From positions 1,333,260 through 1,365,259 of the forward strand of contig NZ_CP041690.1 in the NCBI RefSeq assembly GCF_008000755.1: 32,000 bases of DNA. The letters are read 5' to 3'. Every line of letters begins with the position of its first letter. The stretch's first letter is position 1. Below the pieces are notes generated by a model. The model did no database searches. It was not told the origin of the DNA and saw nothing but the letters and a program-made list of their open reading frames with translations. This DNA is from Paradevosia tibetensis. GTDB lineage: Bacteria; Pseudomonadota; Alphaproteobacteria; Rhizobiales; Devosiaceae. The position numbers and the translations under genes were made by a program. Below, in pieces: positions 47 to 14,038 of the stretch.

Positions 47-1201
47 ATGCCCAATTGGCTGACCCGCCTCGCCGGCGGGCGACGGGACGCGCCGGTGGAA
101 CGCAAGTCGAGCGGCGGCGGGACGGTGTTTTCGCTCACGCAGTTGGGCGAGGCGAACTGGACGCGGCGAGGCTTCTCGAGCCTCGTCAACGAGGGCTTCG
201 CCAAGAACCCGGTAGTCTACCGCTGTGTGCGCATGGTGGCCGAGGCGGCCAATTCGGTGCCGCTGGTGGTCGAGGAAAACGGCAGGCGGGTAAGCGATCA
301 CCCGGTGCTGCAATTGCTCCGCCGCCCCAATCCGCGCCAGTCGGGGAGCGAACTGCTGGAGGCGGTGTATTCGTACCTGCAGACGGCGGGAAACGCCTAT
401 CTCGAAGCGGCGATCGTCGAGGGCGAGGTCAAGGGGCTCTTCGCGCTGCGGCCGGACCGCATGAAGGTGGTGGCGGGCCGCGACGGCTGGGCCTCGGCCT
501 ATGCCTATACGGTGGGCTCGAAGACGCGGCAGCTGAGCCAGGAGCCGGCGCCGATCCCGAAAGTGCTGCATATGGCGCTGTTCCACCCGCTCGACGACCA
601 CTACGGCATGGCTCCGCTCGAGGCAGCGCAGCAGAGCCTCGACATCCACAACGCCTCCGCCCTCTGGAACAAGGCGCTGCTCGACAACGCGGCCCGGCCT
701 TCTGGGGCGCTGGTCTATTCGATGGGGGCGGGGAATCTGACGCCCGACCAGTTCGACAGGCTCAAGGACGAGTTGGAGGAACAGTTTGCCGGCGCTGCAA
801 ATGCCGGGCGGCCGATGGTGCTGGAAGGCGGGCTCGACTGGAAGACCATCGCGCTTTCGCCCCGGGACATGGATTTCATCGAGGCGCGGCACGGCGCGGC
901 GCGCGATATCGCGCTGGCGTTCGGCGTGCCGCCGATGCTGCTCGGGCTGCCGGGGGACAACACCTATTCGAACATGGTCGAGGCCAACCGGGCGCTGTGG
1001 CGGCAGACGGTGATGCCGCTGGTGCGGCGGGTGGCGGACGATCTGAGCTACTGGCTGGCGCCGGCGTTTGGCGGGGTGAGCGTGGTCGCGGACTTCGATG
1101 GCGTCGAGGCGCTGGCGGAGGATCGCGCGGCACTCTGGGAGCGGGTGGGGGGCGCTGGGTTCCTCAGTGATGAGGAGAAGCGGGGGATGCTGGGGGTTTA
1201 G
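47..1201 (+). CDS. Phage portal protein, HK97 family (GTA g3)
   Basis: The track ORF 41..1201 has portal-like motifs (NPVVYRCVRMVAEAANSVPL; LEGGLDWKTIALSPRDMDFIEARHGAARDIALAFGVPPMLLG) and strong GC3 bias. ATG at 47 has AAGGA 7 nt upstream; TTG at 41 is the alternative start. Stop is TAG 1199-1201. Confidence 0.94.
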   Translation: MPNWLTRLAGGRRDAPVERKSSGGGTVFSLTQLGEANWTRRGFSSLVNEGFAKNPVVYRCVRMVAEAANSVPLVVEENGRRVSDHPVLQLLRRPNPRQSGSELLEAVYSYLQTAGNAYLEAAIVEGEVKGLFALRPDRMKVVAGRDGWASAYAYTVGSKTRQLSQEPAPIPKVLHMALFHPLDDHYGMAPLEAAQQSLDIHNASALWNKALLDNAARPSGALVYSMGAGNLTPDQFDRLKDELEEQFAGAANAGRPMVLEGGLDWKTIALSPRDMDFIEARHGAARDIALAFGVPPMLLGLPGDNTYSNMVEANRALWRQTVMPLVRRVADDLSYWLAPAFGGVSVVADFDGVEALAEDRAALWERVGGAGFLSDEEKRGMLGV

Positions 1202-1223
1202 GTGGGACAAGTGCTTGGGGCAG

Positions 1224-1347
1224 CCCCTCACCCGGCGCTGCGCGCCACCCTTTCCCCGAGGGGGCGAGGGTTGGGAGCGTGTTGCGCTTGCCCCAACGAA
1301 AACCCTCGCCCCGTCGGGGAGAGGGTGCCCGGCAGGGCGGTGAGGGG
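1224..1347. repeat. Inverted pair of GC-rich hairpin repeats (family 2)
   Basis: 1224-1272 (cccctcacccggcgctgcgcgccaccctttccccgagggggcgagggtt) closely matches the reverse complement of 1301-1347. Each arm has an internal hairpin of the CCCTCnCCCC-loop-GGGGnGAGGG type. Confidence 0.8.
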
Positions 1348-1371
1348 TCGCAAGGGTGAGATCTCGATTTT

Positions 1372-1472
1372 GGCTCACCCCCACCCTCAATCCCTCCCCA
1401 CAAGGGGAGGGAAGCCTTGAGGCACGGTCGAGCCAGCAGGCCTCCCTCTCCCTTGTGAGGAGGGGTCGAGCC
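1372..1472 (-). repeat. Composite GC-rich hairpin repeat (family 1), full unit in reverse orientation with an internal deletion in one arm
   Basis: The reverse complement aligns along its length with the units at 4601-4714 and 9313-9423. One arm is ggctcacccccaccctcaatccctccccacaaggggagggaag; the other is a truncated arm at 1432-1472. Core hairpin is CCCTCCCC-ACAA-GGGGAGGG. Confidence 0.85.
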
Positions 1473-1483
1473 ACAAACGCAAT

Positions 1484-1687
1484 ATGGAGACATCCATGGA
1501 CGAGCTAACCCGCAGCGTGGTCGCGCGCGGTGACCTGGCGCATCTGGCGCTGTTTTTGTGGGCGACGATGAGCTCGACGCTGCTGGTCTGGGCGCTGCGC
1601 GAGCTGGCGGCGGCCAGTAAGCGGTTCAACGATTTCGTGCACGAGATCGCCACGATCAATCAGCTTTTCAGACGGAAGGACGAGTGA
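1484..1687 (+). CDS. Small hydrophobic protein in the position of GTA g3.5
   Basis: 67-codon ORF with high GC3 and one hydrophobic helix (LAHLALFLWATMSSTLLVWAL). It sits between portal and protease, as g3.5 does in RcGTA. The alternative start ATG 1496 has GGAGA 5 nt upstream. Confidence 0.55.
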   Translation: METSMDELTRSVVARGDLAHLALFLWATMSSTLLVWALRELAAASKRFNDFVHEIATINQLFRRKDE

Positions 1688-1815
1688 TGGCGGAAAAGAC
1701 CAATTCCGAGGCCAACCAGGTGTTCCGGCAGTTTGCCTGGAACCTGGCGGGCACGCTGGCGAGCGTGAAGGCCGGGCAGCGCCCGCAGGCCGGCAAGGGC
1801 GGGAGCAAGCGGTGA
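1687..1815 (+). CDS. 42-codon micro-ORF (MAEKTNSEANQVFRQFAWNLAGTLASVKAGQRPQAGKGGSKR), not in the ORF track
   Basis: Its ATG at 1687 shares the A of the upstream TGA (TGATG). Its TGA at 1813-1815 overlaps the protease GTG at 1812 (GTGA). By hand count, 39 of 42 third codon positions are G/C. Confidence 0.4.
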   Translation: MAEKTNSEANQVFRQFAWNLAGTLASVKAGQRPQAGKGGSKR

Positions 1816-2303
1816 GCGGCATTCCGATCGACGAGACGGGGCGGTTCGCCGGCTATGCCAGCGTCTTTTCCAGGGTCGACGAGGGCGGCGATATCGTCAT
1901 GCCCGAGGCGTTTGCCAGGAGCCTCAAGCGGCGCGGGACGGAGCGGATCCGGCTCCTCTTCCAGCACGACCCCAAGGAGCCCGTCGGTACCTGGGAGCGG
2001 ATCGTGGAGGACGGGTTCGGGCTCTGGGTGGAAGGGCGGCTGGTGCCGGGCGTTCCGCGCGCCGACGCGCTGCGAAAACTCATCGAGCGCGGGGCCATCG
2101 ACGGGCTGTCCATCGGCTTTCGCACCGTCAGGGCCACGCGCGAGGCGGCGACGGGTTACCGCAAGCTCTGGCAGATCGACCTTTGGGAAATCTCCATCGT
2201 GACTTTCCCGATGATGGAGGGCGCGCGCATCGCGGCGGCCTCTCCGGACGCGCACCTGCAGCGGGCGCTGCAGGCGACGGTTTCTCTCCTCAAAAAACCC
2301 TGA
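1812..2303 (+). CDS. HK97-family prohead protease (GTA g4)
   Basis: Typical family motifs are present: GRFAGYASVFSRVDEGGDIVMPEAF, LLFQHDPKEPVG, GLSIGF, LWEISIVTFPM. GTG start; stop TGA 2301-2303. Confidence 0.92.
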   Translation: MSGIPIDETGRFAGYASVFSRVDEGGDIVMPEAFARSLKRRGTERIRLLFQHDPKEPVGTWERIVEDGFGLWVEGRLVPGVPRADALRKLIERGAIDGLSIGFRTVRATREAATGYRKLWQIDLWEISIVTFPMMEGARIAAASPDAHLQRALQATVSLLKKP

Positions 2304-2316
2304 AGGACTTTACGGC

Positions 2317-3537
2317 ATGACCGAAAAGATGACCGACGGCCTCGAAATCAAGGCCGGAGCGGGCAGTGACGATGCTGCGCTCTTCCAGCTCATGAATGCG
2401 TTCGAGAGCTTCAAGATGGAGAACGACGCGCGGCTCGACCGGCTCGAGAAGCGCGGCGCCAGCGATCCGCTGACCGAGGAAAAGCTCGAGCGCATCAACG
2501 CCGCGCTCGATGGCTACAAGGCCGCCATGGACCGGGCCGCGCTCGACCGCGCGCGCCCCTCGCTCGAGGGTGGGCGCAGCGATGCGGGCGACGAATACAA
2601 GGAGGCCTTTTCGGCCTATGTGAAGCGCGGCGAGGAAAAATCGCTCTCGGTCGGCGTCAATGCCGATGGCGGCTATGTCGTGCCGGGAGAGACCGAGGCC
2701 GAGATCACCCGGCGCCTGACCGAGATCTCGCCGATCCGGGCCATCGCAGGTGTCCGCCAGGTCTCCTCCTCGGTCTACAAGCGCCCGATCTCGATCACCG
2801 GTCCGGCGACGGGCTGGGTGGGTGAAACCGACGCGCGTCCGCAGACGGCGAGCCAGACGATCGATGCGATCAGCTACCCGACGATGGAACTCTACGCCAT
2901 GCCGGCGGCGACCTCGGCCTTTCTCGATGACGCAGCGGTGGATGTGGGCCAGTGGATCGCCGAGGAGGTCAACGCGGCCTTCGCCGAGCAGGAAACGGCG
3001 GCCTTCGTCAACGGCGACGGGGTCAGCAAGCCGACCGGGTTCCTCAGCGCCACGCTCGCGGCCGAAAGCGCCTGGGCGTGGGGCAAGCTCGGCTACGTGG
3101 CGACGGGCGTTTCGGGCGATTTCCCGAGCGATGACCAGTCCGACGTGCTGATCGACCTGGTCTATACGCTCAAGGCCGGCTACCGCCAGAACGCGAGCTG
3201 GGTGATGAACCGGCGCACCCAGGGCGCCATTCGCAAGCTCAAGGATACTGAGGGCAACTACCTCTGGCAGCCGGCGGCGGTGGCGGGCGGCAACGCCACG
3301 CTGCTCGGGTTCAACCTGGTGGAAGCCGAGGACATGCCCGATATCGGCGCGGGAACGACGCCGATCGCCTTCGGCGACTTCCGCCGCGGCTACCTGATCG
3401 TGGACCGCCAGGGCGTCAACGTGCTGCGCGATCCGTTCTCGGCCAAGCCTTATGTGCTGTTCTACACGACCAAGCGCGTGGGCGGCGGCATCGCCGATTT
3501 CGACGCGATCAAGCTGCTCAAGTTCGCGGTGAGCTGA
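2317..3537 (+). CDS. HK97-family major capsid protein (GTA g5)
   Basis: 406 aa with an N-terminal coiled delta-like region followed by the capsid fold (GGYVVP, AMPAATSAFLDDAAVDVGQWIAEEV, NRRTQGAIRKLKD, FGDFRRGYLIVDRQG). AAGGA lies upstream of ATG 2317. Confidence 0.95.
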   Translation: MTEKMTDGLEIKAGAGSDDAALFQLMNAFESFKMENDARLDRLEKRGASDPLTEEKLERINAALDGYKAAMDRAALDRARPSLEGGRSDAGDEYKEAFSAYVKRGEEKSLSVGVNADGGYVVPGETEAEITRRLTEISPIRAIAGVRQVSSSVYKRPISITGPATGWVGETDARPQTASQTIDAISYPTMELYAMPAATSAFLDDAAVDVGQWIAEEVNAAFAEQETAAFVNGDGVSKPTGFLSATLAAESAWAWGKLGYVATGVSGDFPSDDQSDVLIDLVYTLKAGYRQNASWVMNRRTQGAIRKLKDTEGNYLWQPAAVAGGNATLLGFNLVEAEDMPDIGAGTTPIAFGDFRRGYLIVDRQGVNVLRDPFSAKPYVLFYTTKRVGGGIADFDAIKLLKFAVS

Positions 3538-3559
3538 GCCGGCAACGCGCTCTGAGACA

Positions 3560-3655
3560 CCCTCCCCCTTGCGGGGAGGGAACAAGGGTGGGGGTGGGTC
3601 AACTCCCCCCGGGCTCACCTCCACCCTCAATCCCTCCCCACAAGGGGGAGGGAAG
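3560..3655. repeat. Two half-copies of the family-1 hairpin repeat, arms facing each other
   Basis: 3560-3598 is the reverse complement of the cttgtt-type arm (ccctcccccttgcggggagggaacaagggtgggggtg). 3611-3655 is a ctcaat-type arm (gggctcacctccaccctcaatccctccccacaagggggagggaag). Confidence 0.85.
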
Positions 3656-3679
3656 TTCCTCCCAACAAGGATCGACATC

Positions 3680-4246
3680 ATGACCTCTTACCTTCTGGCG
3701 GGACCCGCCCAGGAGCCGGTGACGCTCGCCGAGGCGAAGGCGTTCCTGCGGCTCGATGACGAGGCCGAGGACGGGCTGGTCTCGACCCTCATCACGGCGG
3801 CGCGGCTGCATGTGGAGGGGATCACCGGCCGGGCGCTGCTGGCGCAGAGCTGGCGCGTAGTGCTCGATGCCTGGCCAAGGGACCGGAGCGTGAGGCTCCC
3901 CGTGACCCCGCTCATGAGCGTGGCGGCGGTGACCGCCTATGACGCGGATGGCGTTGGGCACGAGATTGCGCTGGCCCAGTTCTGGCCGGAGAACGGCAGC
4001 CTGCTGCTGCCGCTGAACGTGGCCGGCATGCCGGTGCTGCGCGAGCGGCAGGGCATCGAGGTCGACTACGTCGCCGGCTTCGGCACAGACCCCGAGGACG
4101 TGCCGGCCGATATCCGCCAGGCGCTGCTGGCGCTGGTTGGATACTGGTTCGAACACCGCGACGCGGTGATCGTGGCAGGCTCGGGGGCGGTGGTGCCGAC
4201 CGGGTTCGATCGGCTGGTGGCGCCTTATCGGAGCGTGCGGCTATGA
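3680..4246 (+). CDS. Head-tail connector/adaptor protein (gp6-like, GTA g6)
   Basis: MTSYLLAGPAQEPVTLAEAKAFLRLDDEAEDGLVSTLITAARLHVE is a typical gp6-like N-terminus. ATG 3680 has AAGGA 7 nt upstream. The track ORF start at 3569 lies inside the repeat and is rejected. Confidence 0.85.
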   Translation: MTSYLLAGPAQEPVTLAEAKAFLRLDDEAEDGLVSTLITAARLHVEGITGRALLAQSWRVVLDAWPRDRSVRLPVTPLMSVAAVTAYDADGVGHEIALAQFWPENGSLLLPLNVAGMPVLRERQGIEVDYVAGFGTDPEDVPADIRQALLALVGYWFEHRDAVIVAGSGAVVPTGFDRLVAPYRSVRL

Positions 4247-4584
4247 GCGAGCGCATCCCTTCGATCGGAACCCTGACCGACCGCATCCAGCTGCTGCGGC
4301 GCGAGATGATGAGCGAGCCGGGCGGCGGGCACGTGAAGATCTACATTCCCGTCGCCACCGTATGGTCGCGCGTGCGCCCGCTGTCGGGGCGGCAGGGTGT
4401 AGATGCCGACGGGCGGGGCGTGGTGATGAGCCACGCGGTGGTAATGCGGTTTCGGTCCGACGTGAAGCCTGGGGATCGGGTGGTCTATCGCGGCCGCAAG
4501 CTCGAGGTGGTGACGGCGGGCGATGTGAACGGGCGGCGGGCGTACCTGAGCTGCTCGTGCGCGGAGAGGGCGGTGACGGGATGA
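4243..4584 (+). CDS. Head closure / head-tail adaptor protein (GTA g7)
   Basis: 113 aa with an ATGA overlap onto g6. Pattern is typical of the head-tail joining family (TLTDRIQLLR, VATVWSRVRPLSGRQ, HAVVMRFRSDVKPGDRVVYRGRKLEV). Confidence 0.85.
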   Translation: MSERIPSIGTLTDRIQLLRREMMSEPGGGHVKIYIPVATVWSRVRPLSGRQGVDADGRGVVMSHAVVMRFRSDVKPGDRVVYRGRKLEVVTAGDVNGRRAYLSCSCAERAVTG

Positions 4585-4600
4585 GCGGCGTTGCGTTCGT

Positions 4601-4714
4601 GGCTCACCCCCACCCTTGTTCCCTCCCCACAGGGGGGAGGGAGACCTGCCGGCTTTATGGTGCCCCGTCGCCTCACTCCCCCTTTTGGGCAGAAATCGAG
4701 GGTGGGGCTGCACC
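4601..4714 (+). repeat. Composite GC-rich hairpin repeat (family 1), full unit
   Basis: Aligns end to end with 9313-9423. Left arm is ggctcacccccacccttgttccctccccacaggggggagggagacctgccggc; a degenerate inverted right arm ends in gagggtggggctgcacc, directly abutting the g8 ATG. Confidence 0.85.
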
Positions 4715-5125
4715 ATGACCCATCCGATCACCTCCCTCCAGTCGGCGCTCGTCACAGCCCTTCGCGCCGACGCCGGGCTCACGGCGCTCATCGGGGTCGA
4801 TGCAATCTTCGATGCACCGCCGGTGGGCAACACCGGTAGCTATATCGTGGTGGCCAGGCACGACATGCGGCCGCGCGACGGCGACCTGATGCCGGGTAAC
4901 GAGCATCGGATGCTGCTGCACATCTGGCACGCCGACCCTTCGCGGAAGGCGGCGCTGGAGATTGCCGAGCGCGTGGCGGCGCTGGTGTTCGATGCCGATC
5001 TCGACGATGCCGATCTCGTCGTGACGCACCGGCGCCACGAGGGCACCGAGACGACGATCGACAAGGATACCGGCAGGGCCCGGGCGGCGCTGGCGCTGCG
5101 CTTTTTCTCAGAACCCACATCCTAG
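4715..5125 (+). CDS. DUF3168-type tail terminator/completion protein (GTA g8)
   Basis: MTHPITSLQSALVTALRADAGLTALIG and SYIVVARHDMRP are typical of DUF3168, and the position fits. The track start at 4616 is repeat-derived (MFPPHRGEGD) and rejected. Confidence 0.8.
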   Translation: MTHPITSLQSALVTALRADAGLTALIGVDAIFDAPPVGNTGSYIVVARHDMRPRDGDLMPGNEHRMLLHIWHADPSRKAALEIAERVAALVFDADLDDADLVVTHRRHEGTETTIDKDTGRARAALALRFFSEPTS

Positions 5126-5134
5126 GAGGATCGC

Positions 5135-5548
5135 ATGGCAGCCCAGAGCGGCAAGGACATGCTTTTGAAGCTCGATGCCGACGGTTCGGGCAGTTTTCTC
5201 ACTGTCGCGGGACTGCGCACCCGGACGCTCGCCTTCAACGCGGCGTCCATCGACATCACGGACGCCGAAAGCGCCGGGCGCTGGCGCGAGCTGCTGGCGG
5301 GGGCGGGGGTGAAGAAGGCCTCGGCTTCGGGCTCGGGGATCTTCAAGGACCAGGCCTCGGACGCGGCGATCCGCGAGCTCTTCTTCGGCGGCACCATCCG
5401 CAGCTGGCAGTTGATCCTGCCCGATTTCGGGGTAGTTGAGGGACCGTTCCAGATCACCGCGCTCGAGTTCAAGGGCGACCATGCCGGCGAGGTGACGTTC
5501 GACCTGGCGCTGGAAAGCGCCGGGGCGTTGGCGTTTACGGCGGTTTAG
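5135..5548 (+). CDS. Major tail (tube) protein, TP901-1 family (GTA g9)
   Basis: 137 aa. GKDMLLKLDADGSGSFLTVAGLRTRTLAFNAASIDITDAES and GEVTFDLALESAG are typical. AGGAGGA lies 4 nt upstream of ATG 5135. Confidence 0.9.
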   Translation: MAAQSGKDMLLKLDADGSGSFLTVAGLRTRTLAFNAASIDITDAESAGRWRELLAGAGVKKASASGSGIFKDQASDAAIRELFFGGTIRSWQLILPDFGVVEGPFQITALEFKGDHAGEVTFDLALESAGALAFTAV

Positions 5549-5844
5549 CCTTTTCCGCCGGAGCGGTTCTGCGCGGCGTGATAGACGCGAGTGATGGTAA
5601 TGACCTGCATGCTTTCGCTTTGGTCCAGGTGATAGACGATCACGTAGGGAAGGCCGGGAACGACCTTTTCCAAGAGATCGCCTCTGCTGCGGCGCCCGCT
5701 GACGAAGAGCGCGAGGCCGTCGCCGGTCTCGCGTAATATGTCGGCAACGCGGATCGCCGCGGTGCGGTTGTCCCGCGCGATATGGATGAGCTGGTTCTTG
5801 ATGTCGTTGAGTGCACTTTCAGACCACTGAACCTTGCGCTTCAA
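5545..5844 (-). CDS. Type II toxin, RelE/ParE family
   Basis: 99 aa. WSESALNDIKNQLIHIARDNRTAAIRVADIL and LPYVIVYHLDQSESMQVITITRVYHAAQ match the ParE/RelE pattern. Its start overlaps the antitoxin stop by 4 nt, and its stop overlaps the g9 stop (TTAG). Confidence 0.85.
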   Translation of the reverse strand: MKRKVQWSESALNDIKNQLIHIARDNRTAAIRVADILRETGDGLALFVSGRRSRGDLLEKVVPGLPYVIVYHLDQSESMQVITITRVYHAAQNRSGGKG

Positions 5845-6104
5845 GCCGACTTTCTCCGGCTAGCCTGGTCGATCGCAGCATAGATTTCGGCCATCGCCTC
5901 TTCGTGAGAGACCACTCTGCCGGCTTCGATGTCCTCAATTCCCTCCAGGATGCCTTCGATGATCGGCAGTTCGATCGCGACAAATGCTTCGATCGCCTCC
6001 GCCGCGACGTAAGAGAGGCTGCGCTTTCCGGCCTCGGCGATCTTCTCGAGCTTCGCCTTTGTCTCTTCGGGAATTCTGACGGTGATCGTGGTGGTGGCGG
6101 CCAT
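5841..6104 (-). CDS. Ribbon-helix-helix (CopG/ParD-like) antitoxin
   Basis: MAATTTITVRIPEETKAKLEKIAEAGKRSLSYVAAEAIEAFV is an RHH beta-strand plus helix pattern. ATG at 6104 has AAGGAG 8 nt upstream. The track start at 6134 is a less likely extension. Confidence 0.8.
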   Translation of the reverse strand: MAATTTITVRIPEETKAKLEKIAEAGKRSLSYVAAEAIEAFVAIELPIIEGILEGIEDIEAGRVVSHEEAMAEIYAAIDQASRRKSA

Positions 6105-6116
6105 GGGACGCACTCC

Positions 6117-6146
6117 TTGTGTGCACTTGTACACAACCTAACACAA
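6117..6146 (-). promoter_or_regulatory. Candidate operator/promoter region of the TA cassette
   Basis: ttgtgtGTGCACttGTACAcaa contains the palindromic hexamers GTGCAC and TGTACA. TTGTGT/ACACAA motifs occur at 6117, 6131 and 6141. The region lies just upstream of the antitoxin SD and 10-50 nt from the g10 RBS on the other strand. Confidence 0.3.
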
Positions 6147-6167
6147 ACACTTCACGGAGACCATAAC

Positions 6168-6485
6168 ATGGCCAATCCGCAACGGGGCGAGATCGAGGCG
6201 GTGATCGGAGGCGAGCGGCGGGTGCTGTGCCTGACGCTGGGGGCGCTGGCGGAGCTGGAGGCGCGGCTGCAGGCCGGCGACCTGGTCGGGCTCTCCGAGC
6301 GCTTCGCCGGTGGACGCATCTCGGCACGGGATCTGACGGCGATCATCGGGGCGGGGCTGCGCGGGGCGGGCAATGCCATCGCTGATGACGACCTGGCGCG
6401 CATGGCGATCGAGGGCGGCCTCAAGGGCGCCGCCGAGGTGGCGGCCCGCCTGCTGCGGGCGACGTTCGGGGAGGCGGTGGAGTGA
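6168..6485 (+). CDS. GTA g10-type tail assembly chaperone
   Basis: MANPQRGEIEAVIGGERRVLCLTLGALAELEARL and ARDLTAIIGAGLRGAG are typical of the gene transfer agent family protein. GGAGA lies 8 nt upstream of ATG 6168. The track ORF start at 5811 is antisense to the antitoxin and rejected. Confidence 0.8.
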   Translation: MANPQRGEIEAVIGGERRVLCLTLGALAELEARLQAGDLVGLSERFAGGRISARDLTAIIGAGLRGAGNAIADDDLARMAIEGGLKGAAEVAARLLRATFGEAVE

Positions 6486-6676
6486 AGCCGTTTCCCTGGG
6501 ACGATGCCATGCAGATGGGCTTTGGCGTCATGCGCCTCTCCTCGCGCGAATTCTGGGGGCTGACGCCGCGTGAACTGGCTGCCGCCTTCGGCGCGCTGAG
6601 CGGGCCGGCGACGGCGCCGCCGCGCGAGCGGCTCGACGAGATGATGCTTGCCTTTCCGGATCGAGGGAGAAGTTGA
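6482..6676 (+). CDS. GTA g10.1-type small tail chaperone protein (rcc01693-like)
   Basis: MRLSSREFWGLTPRELAAAF is the typical motif. GTG start overlaps the g10 stop (GTGA) with GGAGG 7 nt upstream. The ORF is in the -1 frame relative to g10. Confidence 0.75.
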   Translation: MKPFPWDDAMQMGFGVMRLSSREFWGLTPRELAAAFGALSGPATAPPRERLDEMMLAFPDRGRS

Positions 6677-7224
6677 TGGCCGACACGGCATTTCCGGATG
6701 GATTCCGGGGCGAACTTGACGGGGTTTCCGGTGAACTCGAGCGGATCGGGTCGCTCGCCGACGGGGTGGCGCGGTCGTTCACCAACGCCTTCCGGGGGGC
6801 GATCTCGGATGGAAAATCGCTCAACGGCCTGCTCGGAGACATCGCGCGCAGCTTCGCGGACATCGCGCTCAAGGCGGCCTTCAAGCCGCTTGGAAACCTG
6901 GTCTCGGGGCTGATCGAAAATGTCTTCGCGGCGACCAACCCCGTGGTGCAGGGCGTGACGCCCTTCGCCAAAGGCGGAGTAATCGCCGCTCCCAGTTACT
7001 TTCCGCTCGGGCGGGGGCTGGGCGTGGCGGGCGAGGCCGGGGCCGAGGCGGTGATGCCCCTGATGCGCGGCGCGGACGGGCGATTGGGCGTGGCCGGTGG
7101 CGGCGGCGCTGTGAACGTGACGTTCAACGTGACGGCCAGCGACGCGCGCAGCTTTGTCGGCGCCGAGGCGGAAGTAGGCGCGATGCTGTTGCGGGCAGTC
7201 AGGCGCGGGAGCAGGGCGAGCTAG
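6676..7224 (+). CDS. Short tail tape measure protein (GTA g11)
   Basis: 182 aa, Gly/Ala-rich, with the PFAKGGV and AGEAGAEAVMPL motifs seen in tape measure C-terminal regions. ATG 6676 overlaps the g10.1 stop (TGATG); TTG 6673 is the alternative start. Confidence 0.8.
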   Translation: MADTAFPDGFRGELDGVSGELERIGSLADGVARSFTNAFRGAISDGKSLNGLLGDIARSFADIALKAAFKPLGNLVSGLIENVFAATNPVVQGVTPFAKGGVIAAPSYFPLGRGLGVAGEAGAEAVMPLMRGADGRLGVAGGGGAVNVTFNVTASDARSFVGAEAEVGAMLLRAVRRGSRAS

Positions 7225-7276
7225 GCGGAGCTGGGGTTTGGGGTTTCCGTTCGTCCGACTCTTTTTGGAGGGGGAG

Positions 7277-7328
7277 GTCACCCCCACCCTTGTTCCCTCC
7301 CCACAAGGGGGAGGGAGACCTGCTGGCT
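7277..7328 (+). repeat. Single arm of the family-1 hairpin repeat
   Basis: ggtcacccccacccttgttccctccccacaagggggagggagacctgctggc is nearly identical to the left arms at 4601 and 9313. Confidence 0.85.
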
Positions 7329-7379
7329 GGGGCGGTGCGGCGCCTCGTCTTCGGCACTCAACAAAGAAGGATCGAAAAG

Positions 7380-7997
7380 ATGTCCTTTCATCCAATCCGC
7401 TTCCCTCTCGACATCGCGCTGGGGGCGCGTGGGGGGCCGGAGCGGGCTACCGATATCGTTACGCTGGCCTCGGGGCGCGAGGAGCGCAATTCGCGCTGGG
7501 CGCGGTCGCGGCGCAAATACAACGCGGGGTATGGCGTCAAGTCGCGGACTGACATGCAGGCGGTGCTCGCCTTCTTCGAGGAACGGCGCGGGCGATTCCA
7601 TGCATTCCTCTGGCGCGATGGGCTCGATTATTGCTCGGGCGGCATGGTCCCCGGCGCGGCCGACCAGGCGATCGGCACTGGCGACGGGGTCAAGACGTCC
7701 TTTCAGCTGGTGAAGCGCTACGGCGCCGATTTCGACCCCTATCTGCGGCCGATCACCAAGCCGGTGCCCGGTTCGGTGCTGCTGGCGGTGGACGGTGTCG
7801 AAACCGGTGACTTCGAGGTGGACGAAATCACCGGCGTCGTGACCCTGGAGACCGCGCCCGAGGCGGGCGTGCAGGTGACGGCAGGGTTCCTCTTCGATGT
7901 CCCGGTGCGCTTCGATACCGATCGGCTCGATATCGAACTCACCAGTTTCGATGCGGCTGAGGCGCCGAGCATTCCCCTGATCGAGGTGCTCGAATGA
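7380..7997 (+). CDS. DUF2460-family distal tail protein (GTA g12)
   Basis: MSFHPIRFPLDIALGARGGPERATDIVTLASGREERNSRWARSRRKYNAGYG is the characteristic N-terminus. GAAGGA lies upstream of ATG 7380. The track start at 7290 is repeat-derived and rejected. Confidence 0.9.
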   Translation: MSFHPIRFPLDIALGARGGPERATDIVTLASGREERNSRWARSRRKYNAGYGVKSRTDMQAVLAFFEERRGRFHAFLWRDGLDYCSGGMVPGAADQAIGTGDGVKTSFQLVKRYGADFDPYLRPITKPVPGSVLLAVDGVETGDFEVDEITGVVTLETAPEAGVQVTAGFLFDVPVRFDTDRLDIELTSFDAAEAPSIPLIEVLE

Positions 7998-8884
7998 GGA
8001 CGTTCGAAGCAGCCTTCGCCAGCCACATTGCCACCGGGCAGACAACGCTCGCTTCCTGCTGGCGCATCACGCGGACCGATGGCGTCGTGCTCGGCTTCAC
8101 CGACCACGATGTCACACTCAGTTTCGAGGGCACAAACTTCGTGCCCGCCCATGGGCTAGACGCGGGCGAGGGCACGGCGAAGCTTGGGGCGCAGGTCGAT
8201 ACGTCCGAAGTGGTGGGTATTCTTCATTCCGATGCGATCGCCGAAACCGACATCCTGCTCGGGCGGTTCGACGGTGCGCTGGTCGAGACCTTCAGGGTGA
8301 ACTGGCGCGACACCGCGATGCGCGCGCTGATGCGCCGCGACACCATCGGGGAGATCGTGCGCGAGGACGGTGCTTTCCGCGCGGAACTGCGTTCCGGGCA
8401 GCAGGCGCTCAATGTGCCCAGGGGGCGCATTTACCAGGCGCTTTGCGACGCCGAACTGGGCGACGGACGTTGCGGGGTGAACCTGGAGGTCGACGCGTTC
8501 CGGGCCGCCGCCGGCGTGGCGGCGGTGCACGATCGTTTCCGCCTCGAGGTGACGGGGCTCGACGGGTTCGACGAGGGCTGGTTCTCGTTCGGACGGGTGG
8601 GCTGGACGAGCGGATCCCGCATCGGCAAGGGCGACCGTATCGTCAGCCACGCGCGGATCGGCGGCGCGGATGTGCTCGCCTTCGATGCGCCCGTGGGGGA
8701 TTGGGTGGCGGTCGGCGACGCGCTGACGGCGTTCGCGGGGTGCGACAGGCGGTTTTCGAGTTGCCGGGGCAAGTTCGCCAACGCCGCCAGTTTTCGCGGA
8801 TTTCCGCACATTCCGGGCAACGACTTCGTGATGCGCTACCCCAAGTCCGGCGATGTGCTCGAAGGGCAGGCGCTGGTCAAATGA
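7994..8884 (+). CDS. DUF2163 / BR0599-family baseplate hub protein (GTA g13)
   Basis: TLASCWRITRTDGVVLGFTDHD and the C-terminal CDRRFSSCRGKFANAASFRGFPHIPGNDF are typical. ATGA overlap with g12. Confidence 0.9.
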   Translation: MRTFEAAFASHIATGQTTLASCWRITRTDGVVLGFTDHDVTLSFEGTNFVPAHGLDAGEGTAKLGAQVDTSEVVGILHSDAIAETDILLGRFDGALVETFRVNWRDTAMRALMRRDTIGEIVREDGAFRAELRSGQQALNVPRGRIYQALCDAELGDGRCGVNLEVDAFRAAAGVAAVHDRFRLEVTGLDGFDEGWFSFGRVGWTSGSRIGKGDRIVSHARIGGADVLAFDAPVGDWVAVGDALTAFAGCDRRFSSCRGKFANAASFRGFPHIPGNDFVMRYPKSGDVLEGQALVK

Positions 8885-9297
8885 GCGTGGCAGCGGATCG
8901 GATCGTCCTCGAGGCCCGCCGCTGGGTGGGCACGCCGTACCGGCATCAGTCATCGACGCTGGGGGCGGGATGCGACTGCCTGGGGCTGGTGCGCGGGGTC
9001 TGGCGCGAAATCTATGGCAGCGAGCCGATGGCAATCCCTGCCTATCGCGCCGACCTGCGCGATGTGGCCTTTGCCGGCGCGCTGCAGGCGGCCGCGGACC
9101 GGCTGCTGGTGCGCGCCGAAGGGCTCGCCGCCGGGCGGGTGGTGCTGTTCCGCCTCAACGGCGCTGTAGCGGCCAAGCATTGCGGCATCCTCGTCGGAGG
9201 GGGCCGCTTCGTCCATGCCCAGGAGGGTCTGGGCGTGGTGGAGGCCAATCTCGAAGGCTGGGGCACGCGGGTGGCGGGGGTATTTGAGTTTCCGTGA
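8881..9297 (+). CDS. NlpC/P60-family cell wall peptidase (GTA g14)
   Basis: ARRWVGTPYRHQSSTLGAGCDCLGLVRGVWRE carries the catalytic Cys context, and AKHCGIL and FVHAQEG are also present. ATGA overlap with g13. The track start at 8443 lies inside g13 and is rejected. Confidence 0.9.
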   Translation: MSVAADRIVLEARRWVGTPYRHQSSTLGAGCDCLGLVRGVWREIYGSEPMAIPAYRADLRDVAFAGALQAAADRLLVRAEGLAAGRVVLFRLNGAVAAKHCGILVGGGRFVHAQEGLGVVEANLEGWGTRVAGVFEFP

Positions 9298-9312
9298 GAG
9301 TTTTGGAGTTGG

Positions 9313-9423
9313 GGTTCACCCCCGCCCTTGTTCCCTCCCCACAAGGGGGAGGGAGACCTGCTGGCTTGGTCGTGCCCCATCTTCTCGCTCCCTTGCAGGG
9401 AGGGATTGAGGGTGGGGTGAGCC
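9313..9423 (+). repeat. Composite GC-rich hairpin repeat (family 1), full unit
   Basis: Left arm is ggttcacccccgcccttgttccctccccacaagggggagggagacctgctggc. After a spacer comes the inverted right arm ctcgctcccttgcagggagggattgagggtggggtgagcc. Confidence 0.88.
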
Positions 9424-9510
9424 CGCAAGGGGGGAGGCGTTTCGATCCAGTTTGTCGTGGGTGGCAACGCCCCGTCCCGCATTCGTCGATTATTCATCTC
9501 AGGAGCCGCA

Positions 9511-12500
9511 ATGGCTACGTTAGCACTCTCGGTTGCCGGGCAGTTCGTCGGCGGGTTCGTGGGCGGTCCGATCGGGGCGACGATCGGGCGGGCGCTGGGG
9601 GCGCTTGCCGGCGCGGCGGTGGACAACGCGCTTTTCGGCGAGAAGCCGCAGCGGCGCGCCGGCAGCGACTTCCAGCTCCAGGGCTCGCTCGAGGGTGGCG
9701 CGGTGCCGCGTCTCTACGGGTGGGGCCGGGTAAGCGGCAACATCATCTGGGCCACCGAGCTCGAGGAGATGACCAGCGAGGGTTCGGGCGCCAAGGGTTT
9801 CGGGCAGCAGACCAGCGAAAGCGAGATCTTCGCCAATTTCGCGGTGGGCCTGTGCGAGGGCGAGGTGCACCGCCTGGGGCGCGTCTGGGCCGACGGCAAG
9901 CTGCTCGACCTGAGCGGGCTCAACGTGCGCTTTTACCGCGGCACCTCCGGGCAGGGCGTCGACAGCCTCATCGAGGCCAAGCAGGGCGCGGGCAACGCCC
10001 CGGCCTATCGCGGGCTCTGCTACCTCGTATTCGAACGCCTGCCGGTCTCCCAGTTCGGCAACAGGATTCCGCAGATCTCGGTGGAGCTGTGCCGGGTGGT
10101 GGGGCAACTCGAACCCTCGATCAAGGCCGTGACGGTCATCCCCGGAGCAACCGAGTTCGGCTACGACCCCGTGGCGCGCGTGCGCGTGGTCGGCCCGGGA
10201 GAGACCGCGGCCGAGAACACCCACATGGCAGCCGGCATCTCGGACTGGACGCTCTCGATCGATGAACTGGTGGCGCTGTGCCCCAACCTCGAACACGTCT
10301 CGCTGGTGGTGACCTGGTTCGGCACTGACCTGCGCTGCGCCCAATGCCTCATCGAACCGAGGGTCGAGGGCGCCGGGCGCGTCATCGAGGGGACCTCGTG
10401 GAGCGTGGCCGGGCTGACCCGCGCCACGGCAGGCGTGGTTTCGACCCACGAGGGCGGCCCGGCTTATGGCGGCACGCCCTCGGACGCGGCGGTAATGGCG
10501 GCGATTGCCGATCTCAAGGCGCGCGGCCTCAAGGTGACGCTCTATCCGCTGGTGATGATGGATATTCCGCAGGGCAACACCCTCACCGACCCCTACTGGG
10601 GCGGCTACCAGCCCGCCTATCCCTGGCGCGGGCGCGTGACGTGCGACCCGGCGCCCGGGAGCGCAGGATCGCCCGATCGCAGTGGCGCGGTCCTCGACCA
10701 GGTCGCGGACTTCGTCGGAACGGGCAGCGATTGGCGCTACCGCCGGATGGTGACGCACTACGCGAGCCTGGCGGCGAGCGCGGGGGGCGTCGACGCCGTC
10801 ATCATCGGCTCGGAAATGCGTGCGATGACCACCCTGCGGGACGCTTCGGACAGCTTCCCGTTCGTAACGGCGCTGGTGGCGCTGGCTGCGGAGGTGCGGT
10901 CCATCGTCGGCGGGGCGACCAAGCTCACCTATGCCGCAGACTGGTCCGAGTTCTCAGGCTACCAGCCGGACGGGGAGAAGTTCTTCCATCTCGATCCGCT
11001 CTGGGCGAGCGCCGATATCGACGCGGTGGGGATCGACAACTACATGCCCCTGACCGACTGGCGCGATGGCGACGACCATCTCGACGCGGCCGAAGCGGAT
11101 AGCCTCTACGAGCAGGATTACCTCCAGAGCCGGATCGCGGGCGGGGAGGGCTATGACTGGTACTATGGCTCGGACGGCGCACGGGTGGCGCAGGTCCGCT
11201 CCCCGATCGGGGATGGAGCTTATGGGGAACCCTGGGTCTGGCGATTCAAGGATATCGAGGCCTGGTGGAGCAACGCACACCACGATCGCCCGGGCGGCGT
11301 GCGCTCGGCGTCGACCACGAGCTGGGTGCCGCAATCCAAGCCGATCTGGTTCACCGAACTGGGTTGCGCGGCGGTGGACAAGGGCGCCAACCAGCCCAAC
11401 GTATTCGGCGATCCGAAAAGCTCGGAGAGCGGGCGACCGTATTTTTCGAGCGGCCTGCCCGATCCGCTCGGGCAAAGGCAGTTCCTGCGGGCGCAACTGG
11501 ACTATTGGGGCGGGGCGGCAAACCCCGCCTCAAGCGTTTATGGCGGCCCGATGGTCGCGCGCATCTACCTCTGGACGTGGGACGCGCGGCCCTATCCCGC
11601 CTTTCCCGCCGATACCGCAAGCTGGAGCGATGGCGCCAACCACGCCACCGGCCACTGGCTGACGGGTCGCACCGGAGCCATGGCGAGCGACGAGCTGATC
11701 GCAGCCGTCGCCGCCGACTACGGAGCTGAATTGGACCTGGTCCAGCCGGTGCAACCCTTGATCCACGGACTGCGCATAGAAGGCCTCGCCTCCGCCCGCG
11801 AGGCGCTGGGCGAGGTGCTGGCGGTGAGCGGGCTTTCGGCACGTGACAGCGCCCAAGGCCTGCAATTCCGCCGCGGCAATGCACGAAACGCCATTGCGGC
11901 GGGCGAACTGGTGGCGGACGACGGGCCGATCCTTTCGCGGCGTCGGCCTGACCCCGGGGAGGCCCTGGGCCGGGTGGCGCTCACCTATTTCGACCGCGAG
12001 CGGGCCTACCTCACTGGAACGGTGACGGCGCTGCGTCTTGCCGGCGGCGCGGCGGGAGCCGAAGCCTCCAACCTCGTGCTCGACCTCGCCGGGGCGCGGC
12101 ATGCCGCCGAACGCATCCTGCTCGATCGCAGCGCCGCGGCGGAGACGGTGGAATTCTCCCTGCCGCCCTCGATGGCGGCGGTGGAGGTGGGCGATGTCCT
12201 CACGCTCGAGGGCGTCGCGGAAGGCCCGTTCGAGGTGACGGAAATCCGGGACGGGCTGGCGCGCAAGATCTCGGCCCGCGCGATGCCCCCGGCGATGACT
12301 GCTGCCATCACCTCCGATCGCCCGCAGGCCCCCATGGCGCTGACCGGGGTGAAGTCCATGCCCATCGTGCTCGCGGCGCACCTGCCGCCGCTGCCCGACG
12401 CGCCATTGCGATCCCGCCTGGCGTTTGCCGCCTCCGCCAGGCCGTGGCCGGGCGACGTGACGATCAACGACGAGGTGACCGGCTCGACCCTGGCGCGCCT

Positions 12501-13269: not shown

Positions 13270-14038
13270 ACCGACAGACCGCTTCTCGGCGTGCCTCAAG
13301 ATCGTGCTGGCCCAAGAGGGCGGCTATGCCGATCATCCCGCCGATCCGGGTGGCGCCACCAATATGGGCATCACCCGCAAGACGCTGGCGCGCTGGCGCT
13401 CGGTCTCGCCCTGGTGGGACCTGCCCAAAAGCGCCGTCCAGCAACTGAAGAGCGAGGAAGCCGCCTCGATCTACAAGGCCTCCTACTGGGAGCGCAGCAA
13501 CGCGCAGTCGCTGCCGGCGGGACTCGACCTGGCGCTCTTCGACTATGCAGTCAATTCCGGGCCCGATCGGGCCATCAAGTCGCTCCAGAAACTGCTGGGC
13601 GTGGTCGCCGACGGGCAGGTGGGGCCGCTGACGCTCGCCGCCATCCGTACGCGCGTGGCCGCCGCCGGGGTGGCCGGACTGATCGATGCCCTCTGCAACC
13701 AGAGACTCTCGTTCCTCACGCAACTGGCAACCTTCGCCGTCTTCGGGCGCGGATGGCGGCGGCGCGTCGAGGACATTCGCAAGGCCGCCTTCGCCGATGC
13801 CGGCGGGCCGCCCCGTACCCCTTCCACTCAACCGAGCATATGGAGCGAAGTGATGAATATCCTGGCAGGCTACAAGACCTATATCGTGGCCGCGGCAATG
13901 GTGATTGCCGGGCTGGCGCAGGTGCTGGGCGTCGAAATTCCCACGCTGGAAGGCCATTCGGCCGGGCAGCTGGTGCTCGAGGCCATTGCCATCATCTTCC
14001 TGCGCAAAGGCATCAAGAACGACGTCGGCGGTGTCTGA
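13262..14038 (+). CDS. GH108-family N-acetylmuramidase with a PG_binding_3 domain and a C-terminal two-helix membrane tail
   Basis: N-terminus VLAQEGGYADHPADPGGATNMGIT is a GH108 signature. LQKLLGVVADGQVGPLTLAAI and FGRGWRRRV fit PG_binding_3. The last ~60 aa hold two hydrophobic helices (YIVAAAMVIAGLAQVLGV; LVLEAIAIIFL). 8-nt overlap with the g15 stop; GGGAGA RBS. Confidence 0.88.
   Translation: MPEPTDRFSACLKIVLAQEGGYADHPADPGGATNMGITRKTLARWRSVSPWWDLPKSAVQQLKSEEAASIYKASYWERSNAQSLPAGLDLALFDYAVNSGPDRAIKSLQKLLGVVADGQVGPLTLAAIRTRVAAAGVAGLIDALCNQRLSFLTQLATFAVFGRGWRRRVEDIRKAAFADAGGPPRTPSTQPSIWSEVMNILAGYKTYIVAAAMVIAGLAQVLGVEIPTLEGHSAGQLVLEAIAIIFLRKGIKNDVGGV

Follow-up and report, generated by a model that had tools for sequence, protein, structure and literature searches.

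The GC-rich hairpin repeats found between the genes of the RcGTA-like head-tail operon of Paradevosia tibetensis belong to family 1, an old family of REP/BIME-like extragenic palindromes which is spread across the Devosiaceae without a RAYT, and to a second palindrome family associated with it. At the post-capsid junction (g5|g6), palindromic repeats are present in the Devosiaceae where most other Hyphomicrobiales carry a canonical intrinsic terminator. The reading that we favour, although we place it a little short of an even chance, is that an operon transcribed by an anti-terminating polymerase tolerates the repeats and has in part put them to use as barriers or RNA 3'-end hairpins. The initial annotation had reported the repeats and their arrangement, an observation that was confirmed, and its interpretation was partly supported. 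The gafY-gafZ-like gene pair, the contrast between terminator and repeats at g5|g6 and the purifying selection on the GTA genes described below are new.

Repeats in the GTA Operon

The window (the whole stretch of DNA analysed, 32,000 nucleotides) contains the following genes, as assigned with Pfam:

47–14038 (+), RcGTA-like head-tail operon
47–1201 (+), portal (g3)
1812–2303 (+), protease
2317–3537 (+), capsid (g5)
3680–4246 (+), connector
4243–4584 (+), head completion protein (g7)
4715–5125 (+), tail completion (g8)
5135–5548 (+), tube
5545–6134 (−), ParE/RHH toxin-antitoxin cassette, antisense, at the g9|g10 junction
6168–6485 (+), g10
6482–6676 (+), g10.1
6676–7224 (+), tape-measure protein (g11)
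7380–7997 (+), g12
7994–8884 (+), g13
8881–9297 (+), g14
9511–13269 (+), g15
13262–14038 (+), GH108 lysin

The repeats, which in this operon start 15–23 nt past the upstream stop codon, are:

1224–1347, family-2 inverted pair (arms 1226–1272 and 1301–1347), starting 23 nt past the stop of portal g3
1372–1472, family-1 doublet with heads outward; singlets 1373–1423 (+) and 1431–1470 (−), the second partly decayed; z = −4.5
3560–3655, family-1 tail-to-tail doublet; 3560–3597 (−) and 3613–3655 (+); 22 nt past the stop of capsid g5
4601–4714, family-1 doublet; 4603–4654 (+) and decayed arm 4662–4711 (−); 16 nt past the g7 stop; z = −2.3
7277–7328 (+), family-1 singlet, 3' of tape-measure gene g11
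9313–9423, family-1 doublet; 9315–9366 (+) and decayed arm 9388–9420 (−); 15 nt past the g14 stop
9421–9452, tentative remnant of a variant REP, CGCAAGGGGGGAGGCGTTTCGATCCAGTT, recognized by eye

The core, the units and the family-2 pair were all recovered, with nhmmer and by reading of the sequence, where the initial annotation had placed them. The elements at 3560–3598 and 3611–3655, which it had taken for half units, do exist, and together they form one tail-to-tail doublet of a kind found 24 times in the genome. As had also been stated, repeats are present in every one of the five gaps longer than 100 nt that separate + strand GTA genes; g9|g10, the sixth large gap, is taken by the ParE/RHH cassette, which is free of REP and absent from the sister species (genome G001). 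No family-1 or family-2 copy was found at 9430–32000, in agreement with the earlier statement that none was seen in the intergenic gaps of the remaining 18 kb, though further loci lie upstream of the window. There, between terminase g2 and an antisense VOC gene (voc), three family-1 loci and two family-2 pairs are found at positions 13876–14570 of L001. The array downstream of g2, just upstream of the window, consists of 2.2 copies of a 314-bp composite with 95% identity, and the whole g2–voc gap folds with z = −9.5. The g3 gap carries the same composite in inverted orientation, 1224–1347 and 1372–1472 together making a single copy. The operon carries two antisense gene insertions.

Folding of the gaps, a check proposed earlier, gave z values of −2.3 to −7.5 for the family-1 doublets and the family-2 pair. 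The 47-nt arms of the latter are 79% complementary (−101 kcal/mol, z = −5.8), and the doublets at 3560–3655 and 9313–9423 gave −87.9 kcal/mol (z = −7.5) and −81.9 kcal/mol (z = −3.5), respectively.

Several of these elements have counterparts in the sister species. The 3613–3655 arm is orthologous to a singlet there, and the insertion at 4601–4714, whose right arm adjoins the g8 ATG at 4715, also has an ortholog. Since the sister species carries a doublet at the site of the singlet 7277–7328, the segment 7230–7276 is probably the decayed partner arm. The doublet at 9313–9423 is missing from that genome, in which the g14|g15 gap measures 53 nt, and the putative remnant at 9421–9452 resembles both the doublet in its g2|voc gap and one inside the cobN gene of P. 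tibetensis.

A Genome-Wide Family of REP/BIME-Like Palindromes

The family-1 unit is a GC-rich palindrome of about 45 nt with the hairpin CCCTCCCC-ACAA-GGGGAGGG (stem 8 bp, loop 4 nt), a core conserved to at least 90% and two arm types, TTGTT...GAGACCTGCTGGC and CAAT...AAGCG. A search of the whole P. tibetensis genome with nhmmer gave 158 singlets at 97 loci, 94 of them intergenic. Occupied junctions comprised 28 of 631 convergent, 55 of 2895 tandem and 2 of 631 divergent ones, classes which rest on our own crude gene calls, and the distance from stop codon to repeat had its mode at 15–23 nt; the REP/BIME-type character proposed in the initial annotation was borne out by this placement. Family 1 is present either as singlets, for which no orientation bias was seen, or as inverted doublets of fixed geometry: 59 arm pairs are inverted and none is direct, with 35 head-out doublets of 109–113 nt and 24 tail-to-tail doublets with a spacer of 20–22 nt. 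The copies are about 77% identical to one another, and so show no sign of recent replication.

These repeats resemble the REP/BIME of E. coli and other enterobacteria in several respects: both are short, imperfect, GC-rich palindromes with many copies per genome, both lie outside genes, at their 3' ends and seldom in divergent promoter regions, both combine two variants of alternating orientation into mosaic units, and both occur between cistrons of ABC-transporter operons. They differ in being unrelated in sequence, in the longer unit with a C-rich head, in the higher-order 314-bp composite with a second palindrome family, and in the lack of a RAYT. Inverted REP doublets with a tightly fixed spacer and no target duplication are likewise shared with REPIN-RAYT systems (Bertels and Rainey 2011, PMC3116915), but a cognate RAYT is absent. 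The Y1/RAYT profile PF01797, which found RAYT in six control genomes, had 0 matches in this complete genome (99.99% complete) and none in the genus, and matched only 2 of 41 Devosiaceae genomes; the RAYT/IS200-like transposase that had been suspected elsewhere in the genome was therefore not found.

A MITE-like element, also suggested earlier, was rejected because no target-site duplication was seen in the flanks of 22 complete family-1 doublets and no autonomous parent was found: head-out REP pairs 0.4–4 kb apart all enclose ordinary genes and no transposase (by eye, an ABC transporter, acetolactate synthase, mutase and thiolase; the Pfam check covered the ABC genes and CobN only). Mosaic palindromes between genes also occur in a related order, as the Rhizobium-specific intergenic mosaic elements (RIME), and in-frame insertion into genes is a feature of the Rickettsia palindromic elements (RPE). 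Our repeats are likened to both by description, the RPE-like case being a family-1 copy inserted in frame within cobN, which was noticed in passing.

The head ACCCCCACCC is unpaired yet as conserved as the stem, and no covariation was seen in the family-1 stem, the sequence being conserved rather than the pairing. A role at the DNA level, with the repeats as sites for nucleoid or architectural proteins or as recombination or insertion hot spots and the RNA form irrelevant, would agree with this and with the way in which the repeats nest and cluster (the composite array, the remnants at 9421–9452). The BIMEs of E. coli are sites for IHF, gyrase and Pol I. IHF also co-activates the GTA cluster of Caulobacter (PMC11150451). 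Nevertheless, no binding motif was identified, and the 3'-end bias and fixed stop distance suggest a constraint linked to the transcript, so that a role of this kind seems very improbable.

Enrichment in the Cluster

Eight of the 97 family-1 loci of the genome lie in a 10.5-kb span at the GTA cluster, which is the densest family-1 spot in the genome (scan-statistic permutation P = 0.003). Counted by junction, 6 of 21 are occupied in the cluster (g1 to lysin) as compared with 85 of 4157 (2%) in the genome (binomial 8e-6), about 12-fold the genome average. As the composites after g2 and g3 are related, the independent events may number five, and the conservative count in which the composites flanking voc–g3 are scored once gave P(max ≥ 5) = 0.04. 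The comparison of copy density between cluster and genome, envisaged in the initial annotation, thus came out as enrichment. When any structured gap was scored, the excess was modest only, about 25% of cluster junctions versus about 15% of tandem junctions.

A neutral origin has to be weighed against these figures: immobile old palindromes would accumulate wherever translational coupling stays intact and have no role, and they would be numerous in the GTA operon because junctions of this sort abound there and few cells express it. The cluster copies are indeed no closer to one another than to the family (0.80, 0.78, 0.77), arms 4662–4711, 9388–9420 and 1431–1470 are decayed, and neither covariation nor orientation bias supports a function. 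With the model built from the P. tibetensis genome, relatives likewise gave only 0.75 matches per 10 kb inside their GTA clusters versus 0.47 outside. The 12-fold occupancy (P from 0.003 to 0.04) argues against this origin, as does the purifying selection on the GTA genes (dN/dS 0.04–0.24 versus the sister species), in view of which the operon cannot be regarded as a dead zone. The earlier proposal that a usually silent cluster may simply tolerate insertions proved too weak, given this selection and the several arms common to the sister species.

Junctions in Relatives

In about 80 relatives, insertions are confined to junctions with no overlap between stop and start codons. Among 31 Devosiaceae loci, gaps of at least 60 nt were found at g5|6 (100%), g11|12 (74%), g2|3 (72%), g8|9 (59%), g9|10 (52%) and g14|15 (32%), and never at g6|7, g10|10.1, g10.1|11 or g12|13. 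The match between repeats and functional modules that the initial annotation had pointed out has a simpler cause in this rule.

Comparison of orthologous clusters showed that the junction rule and the structure at the capsid site are conserved, while the repeat family and the subset of junctions vary from one relative to another; in the sister species the same junctions are filled, partly by another genome-wide palindrome family. A neutral origin gains from both the exact observance of the no-overlap rule and this variation. It is at odds with the REP arms at g5|6, g7|8 and g11|12, which are orthologous between the two species and have cores about 90% identical, as against about 50% for the spacers, at a dS of about 0.5–1.

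The g5|g6 gap was structured (z < −2) in 23 of 23 Devosiaceae and in 30 of 38 other loci. A hairpin of the GGCCCCGG type followed by a T-run was present in at least 24 of the 38 non-Devosiaceae gaps, as compared with hairpin plus T-run in 4 of the 23 Devosiaceae gaps, the remainder being long palindromic repeats of several families. A strong hairpin between the capsid and connector genes is common to phage and Hyphomicrobiales GTA post-capsid terminators and to the present operon; the short stem with a T-run of other Hyphomicrobiales is replaced here, and in most Devosiaceae, by long REP-type palindromes without one. Our repeats have the GC-rich stem-loop of an intrinsic terminator but no U-tract 3' of the hairpins, and a canonical terminator was predicted at none of them, a point against the barrier reading favoured here. 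The constant structure of g5|g6 in Devosiaceae and its conserved terminator in other families also tell against a neutral origin, which we regard as unlikely overall.

Proposed Role of the Repeats

Since the family fills junctions that include the post-capsid terminator site, the repeats at GTA junctions are probably transcription barriers or RNA-end structures. A gafY-gafZ-like pair of overlapping genes lies 10.7 kb upstream (L001 281–1484). The gafY-like gene has a DnaA_C-HTH (Bac_DnaA_C, 1.3e-16) and the gafZ-like gene a DUF6456 domain (1.2e-34), which among the control genomes was matched in Caulobacter only and is single-copy in 32 of 33 good Devosiaceae genomes. In the Caulobacter GTA cluster, GC-rich inverted-repeat arrays stop ordinary transcription and GafZ bypasses them; terGTA, three 150-bp GC-rich repeats, was shown to terminate (Tran et al. 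2024, PMC11150451). The present cluster resembles that system in three ways, the two being likened by arrangement: GC-rich direct repeats that contain inverted repeats follow an early gene, a split pair of gafY/gafZ-type regulators is encoded nearby, and the cluster is otherwise a single long co-directional operon. It differs in that its repeats are members of a family found throughout the genome and occur at six junctions rather than one, and in that an antisense gene faces the array downstream of g2.

Termination with GafYZ anti-termination, an option that the initial annotation had not weighed, is suggested by the gafYZ pair and by the replacement of the post-capsid terminator. We infer termination and anti-termination, together with an effect on protein stoichiometry, along the following lines. 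The repeats would form very stable hairpins in the GTA transcript and serve as RNA 3'-end structures and as partial barriers to transcription, those at g5|g6 standing in for the intrinsic terminator kept by most other Hyphomicrobiales. The polymerase that reads the operon would carry a modification by an activator and anti-terminator of the GafY/GafZ type, which may be why the operon can bear many repeats and two antisense genes. Cells with the GTA off would gain fail-safe silence, and in cells with the GTA on expression would fall stepwise past the capsid gene and at module boundaries. A bolder version, which we hold to be doubtful, is that genome-wide REP-type palindromes were recruited in Devosiaceae to supply a GafYZ anti-termination circuit with its terminators, replacing the ancestral post-capsid terminator and placing barriers at every uncoupled junction. 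If so, only GafZ-modified polymerase would read through the lethal GTA operon, and the single terGTA of Caulobacter would be extended into a multi-site system built from repeats.

Hairpin-set differential mRNA stability is known from malEFG and puf. On this model, put forward in the initial annotation, the hairpins would mainly block 3'-to-5' exonucleases, stabilise upstream mRNA segments after processing and set stoichiometry module by module, irrespective of termination or anti-termination. Such an effect would suit the start of the repeats 15–23 nt past stop codons and the position of the most stable doublet 3' of the capsid gene, whose product is required in the largest amount. But repeats also follow the genes for the low-copy portal, tape measure and g14, so that stoichiometry in any simple sense does not account for their placement; the g5|g6 element of relatives, with its T-run, is a terminator and not just a stabiliser; and passage through two antisense genes and the 750-nt hairpin array is left unexplained. 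As the main explanation it appears improbable. Within ABC operons of the genome, family 1 is also found 3' of solute-binding-protein (SBP) genes, and in the operon SBP-REP-permease-permease-ATPase-REP-ALDH three of seven junctions carry a REP. The density of REPs in such ordinary operons indicates that anti-termination is not needed for their tolerance, which counts against the anti-termination reading favoured here, and the SBP-REP-permease arrangement makes an intercistronic RNA role plausible.

GTA Operon and Its Setting

The window corresponds to G000:C1:1333260–1365259 (G000, the Paradevosia tibetensis genome; C1, its chromosome contig) of a complete 4.43-Mb genome with a GC content of 64.8%, whose placement in the Devosiaceae was obtained from capsid relatives. 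An RcGTA-like head-tail operon was found on the + strand at the window start, with genes named by Pfam. Positions prefixed L001 refer to the same GTA locus in a numbering that begins upstream of the window.

Features of the GTA operon
L001 12554–13870, terminase g2
L001 14627–14992, − (antisense), VOC/glyoxalase gene between terminase g2 and portal g3
47–1201, +, portal
1812–2303, +, prohead protease
2317–3537, +, capsid
3680–4246, +, connector
4243–4584, +, head completion
4715–5125, +, tail completion
5135–5548, +, tube
5545–6134, − (antisense), ParE/RHH toxin-antitoxin cassette in the g9|g10 junction
6168–6485, +, g10
6482–6676, +, g10.1
6676–7224, +, tape measure
7380–7997, +, g12
7994–8884, +, g13
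8881–9297, +, g14
9511–13269, +, g15
13262–14038, +, GH108 lysin

Cells that make GTA particles die of it, and strict silence of the operon must therefore go together with complete readability once it is induced. Comparison with the sister species (G001) gave dN/dS values of 0.04–0.24 for every GTA gene, g2 through g15, and for the lysin gene; g1 was left out, having been read in a wrong frame. The operon has thus remained under selection while bearing repeats. The antisense VOC gene is common to G000 and G001 (87% amino acid identity, dN/dS 0.15) and is missing from other Devosiaceae, in which 10–23 nt separate g2 from g3. The ParE/RHH cassette is a recent insertion in the permissive g9|g10 junction, G001 having no cassette and a gap of 14 nt.

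Structure and Class of the Repeats

Every repeat listed in the initial annotation was found where it had been placed. The basic unit of family 1, a REP-like palindrome of about 45–50 nt (consensus GCTCACCCCCACCCTTGTTCCCTCCCCACAAGGGGGAGGGAG...), has a C-rich conserved head, an 8-bp stem and a 4-nt loop, with core positions at least 90% conserved across copies, and shows two arm variants, TTGTT...GAGACCTGCTGGC and CAAT...AAGCG. Genome-wide, nhmmer detected 158 units; 35 head-out inverted doublets (total length 109–113 nt), 24 tail-to-tail inverted doublets (spacer 20–22 nt) and 41 singlets were counted, and no direct pair was present in the genome. As these arrangements show, the stretch 3560–3655, previously described as two independent half units, is one tail-to-tail doublet. 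On folding, the doublets gave long hairpins (−63 to −88 kcal/mol, z −2.3 to −7.5) and the related inverted pair of family 2 an energy of −101 kcal/mol. No Rfam family was matched at the gathering threshold, and the E-value mode gave only spurious miRNA-hairpin matches.

Against crude gene calls of our own (4158 genes, 87.9% of the genome covered), 94 of the 97 family-1 loci were intergenic and 85 of 4157 junctions held such loci, namely 28/631 convergent, 55/2895 tandem and 2/631 divergent junctions. At tandem junctions the distance from the stop codon to the repeat was modally 15–23 nt (median 37 nt), and the median distance from the repeat to the next start codon was 114 nt. Ordinary operons form the region that ranks second in repeat density; they include, in order, SBP_bac_5, REP doublet, permease, permease, ATPase, REP doublet, aldehyde dehydrogenase, REP; the SBP_bac_5–REP–permease order resembles the classic malE–REP–malFG. 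The likeness to REP/BIME elements put forward earlier was matched in every sequence-level respect examined, and the elements are very probably palindromes of this kind.

The transposase and mobility suggested with that likeness fared otherwise. PF01797, the mark of a RAYT/IS200-like transposase, was absent from the complete genome and from the genus and matched 2 of 41 Devosiaceae genomes, in a search that matched six control genomes; a REPIN-RAYT system was rejected for want of a match in the own genome or genus. A MITE-like origin was not supported, the flanks of doublets being without target-site duplication and no autonomous parent being found, including between distant head-out REP pairs. 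The family looks old, identity between random doublets being about 77%. Local hopping from one source copy was rejected, since the cluster copies, tandem units excepted, resemble each other no more than copies paired at random.

Occupancy of the GTA Cluster

Within 10.5 kb the cluster gathers eight family-1 loci out of 97 and 14 units out of 158, which makes it the densest spot of the genome. Occupancy continues upstream of the window, where a family-1 doublet and a family-2 pair make up a 314-bp composite that is present in 2.2 copies at 95% identity (L001 13876–14570, window −1124 to −430) between the terminase stop and the convergent VOC gene. The periodicity of this array was 313–316 bp by repeat search, Tandem Repeats Finder giving nothing, and the 756-nt g2–VOC gap folds with z = −9.5. 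An inverted copy of the composite (67% identity) lies in the g3 gap at 1224–1472, so that composites flank the voc and portal genes; at this identity an invertible segment between them is unlikely. The composite is almost unique to the GTA cluster.

The cluster is enriched over the genome: between g1 and the lysin gene there are 21 junctions, six of them occupied, against 2.4% of eligible junctions genome-wide (binomial P = 8 × 10−6); in a permutation scan, some 21-junction window reached six with P = 0.003. The g2 and g3 gaps hold the same composite and their occupancies are thus not independent; counted as five events, the enrichment has P = 0.04. The earlier statement that the repeats fill every large gap is partly circular, since it is the repeats that create these gaps. 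Among ordinary genes, a run at 736–746 kb has 3/7 junctions occupied. Gaps of 45–320 nt make up 43% of tandem junctions genome-wide and 35% of those gaps have z < −2; scored as "any structured gap", the cluster stands only modestly above this tandem-junction background.

Permissive and Closed Junctions

GTA genes were located in 85 related loci, and the share of gaps of at least 60 nt was determined for the Devosiaceae.

Share of Devosiaceae loci with a gap of at least 60 nt, by junction
g3|g4 (includes two small ORFs), 100%
g5|g6, 100%
g11|g12, 74%
g2|g3, 72%
g8|g9, 59%
g9|g10, 52%
g14|g15, 32%
g7|g8, 19%
g13|g14, 1/22 loci
g6|g7, g10|g10.1, g10.1|g11 and g12|g13, 0% each

The junctions that never open have stop and start codons overlapping by 4–10 nt, which indicates that repeats settle exactly where translational coupling is absent. 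The match between repeats and module boundaries noted in the initial annotation is accounted for by uncoupled junctions, the functional modules being the translationally coupled blocks. Matches to the own REP family occupy different subsets of permissive junctions in different relatives, with a density of 0.75 per 10 kb inside vs 0.47 outside GTA clusters, a comparison limited by the relatives' use of diverged families.

That the repeats are neutral passengers at such junctions is possible, though somewhat doubtful. Even neutral repeats would represent a REP family that lacks a RAYT, and their sites would clearly chart where GTA clusters accept insertions.

Comparison with the Sister Species

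Repeats also fill these junctions in G001 (capsid 90% identical), where some of the elements are different ones: a variant doublet follows g2, a family-3 palindrome lies at g3|g4 and g5|g6, and family-1 doublets lie at g7|g8 and g11|g12, while g14|g15 has a 53-nt gap and no repeat. Family 3 (CCACCACCGTACTTCCCCGG...CCGGGGAAGTACGGTGGTGG, about 105 nt) is itself dispersed genome-wide, numbering at least 40 loci in G001 and some 15 in G000; its copies at GTA junctions are confined to G001, on the reverse complement at 5376–5560 and 7578–7790 of the G001 locus (L082). REP arms at g5|g6, g7|g8 and g11|g12 stand at homologous positions in both species, with cores about 90% identical and adjoining spacers about 50% identical or unalignable, at a synonymous divergence of the flanking genes of 0.43–0.99. 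Some insertions are accordingly older than the species split and were retained.

At g7|g8, the decayed right arm of the doublet (4662–4717) reaches the ATG of g8 and provides the only purine-rich SD-like stretch of this gene, GAGGGTGGGG; the arrangement is kept in G001 in shortened form.

The Post-Capsid Junction

At g5|g6, significant structure (z < −2) was found in 23/23 Devosiaceae loci and in 30/38 loci of other Hyphomicrobiales; at the remaining junctions, structured gaps were confined to Devosiaceae. Outside the Devosiaceae (loci L029–L081), g5|g6 carries a canonical intrinsic terminator directly 3' of the capsid gene, with a T-run 3' of a GGCCCCGG...CCGGGGCC-type stem, flagged by a crude test in at least 24 of 38 loci. 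Such a terminator was found in 4/23 Devosiaceae loci, the remainder having long palindromic repeats of several families. This order thus conserves a post-capsid terminator inside the operon, and in the Devosiaceae REP-type palindromes have replaced or overlaid it. The order-wide terminator is a useful marker and implies that read-through control is general to these clusters.

Proposed Transcription Barriers and Anti-Termination

Two overlapping genes lie about 10.7 kb upstream of g1 (L001 281–1484, genome 1318540–1319743).

Candidate activator and anti-terminator genes
L001 281–727, gafY-like gene, DnaA C-terminal HTH domain
L001 717–1484, gafZ-like gene, DUF6456

By domain content, the pair has the split GafY/GafZ arrangement. 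DUF6456 matched only Caulobacter among 14 control genomes. Of 33 good-quality Devosiaceae genomes, 32 have a single copy of it; where on the same contig as the GTA cluster, it is usually no more than some tens of kb away. In the Caulobacter cluster the first gene is followed by three direct repeats of 150 bp, which are GC-rich and contain inverted repeats (PMC11150451); these abolish expression from an unrelated strong promoter (Tran et al., PMC11150451) and are read through by polymerase in the presence of GafZ with NusA, NusG and NusE (PMC11150451). In the literature searched, no paper linked REP-type repeats with GTA clusters apart from this repeat terminator, terGTA.

For g3–g15 to be expressed from the g1 promoter, polymerase would have to cross a 750-nt hairpin array and then the antisense VOC gene, followed by five more repeat-filled gaps and the antisense toxin-antitoxin cassette. 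No sigma-70-like promoter was predicted in the repeat-filled gaps. We tentatively favor the reading that the repeats may impede transcription in part and form hairpins at RNA 3' ends, within an operon transcribed by a GafYZ-modified polymerase. The g5|g6 copy would then substitute for the conserved post-capsid terminator, and the remaining copies would be tolerated, possibly useful, additions. Counting against barriers are the absence of U-tracts at the repeats, where no canonical terminator was predicted, the presence of REPs inside ordinary operons too, stem covariation so slight across family-1 copies as to be uninformative, and the lack of bias in singlet orientation relative to transcription (9 vs 10). 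The segmentation of the transcript by mRNA stability, as first proposed, fits much of the evidence used here as well and does not exclude barriers; it is considered unlikely. A role at the DNA level appears very improbable.

If the repeats are internal stops passed only by anti-terminating polymerase, REP biology and GTA regulation would be linked, the GC-rich repeat arrays in GTA clusters of several alphaproteobacterial lineages would be accounted for, and repeat settlement in operons would follow a simple rule, namely only junctions without translational coupling.

When the regions 5' of g1 were aligned in search of a shared promoter, several Devosiaceae (loci L085, L005, L011, L023, L008 and L026) showed a conserved, promoter-like block there (TTATCC-CCGCGTGACG, about 12 nt, TATGGTT, then GGCATGGTC). 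In this genus (G000 and G001) the block was not seen, and g1 directly adjoins a KTSC gene on the minus strand.

Repeat Copies Elsewhere in the Genome

A CobN/Mg-chelatase ORF of 1329 amino acids outside the window (G000:C1:382007–385996) contains in-frame family-1 REP copies and a variant doublet, which are read twice as APTSPSPLWGGNKGGGEP (residues 200–217 and 491–508); the ORF has no internal stop. These copies are reminiscent of the Rickettsia palindromic elements, which insert into coding sequence. In addition, family 2 forms a tandem array at G000:C1:3916071–3916688, with six matches at a period of about 240 bp.
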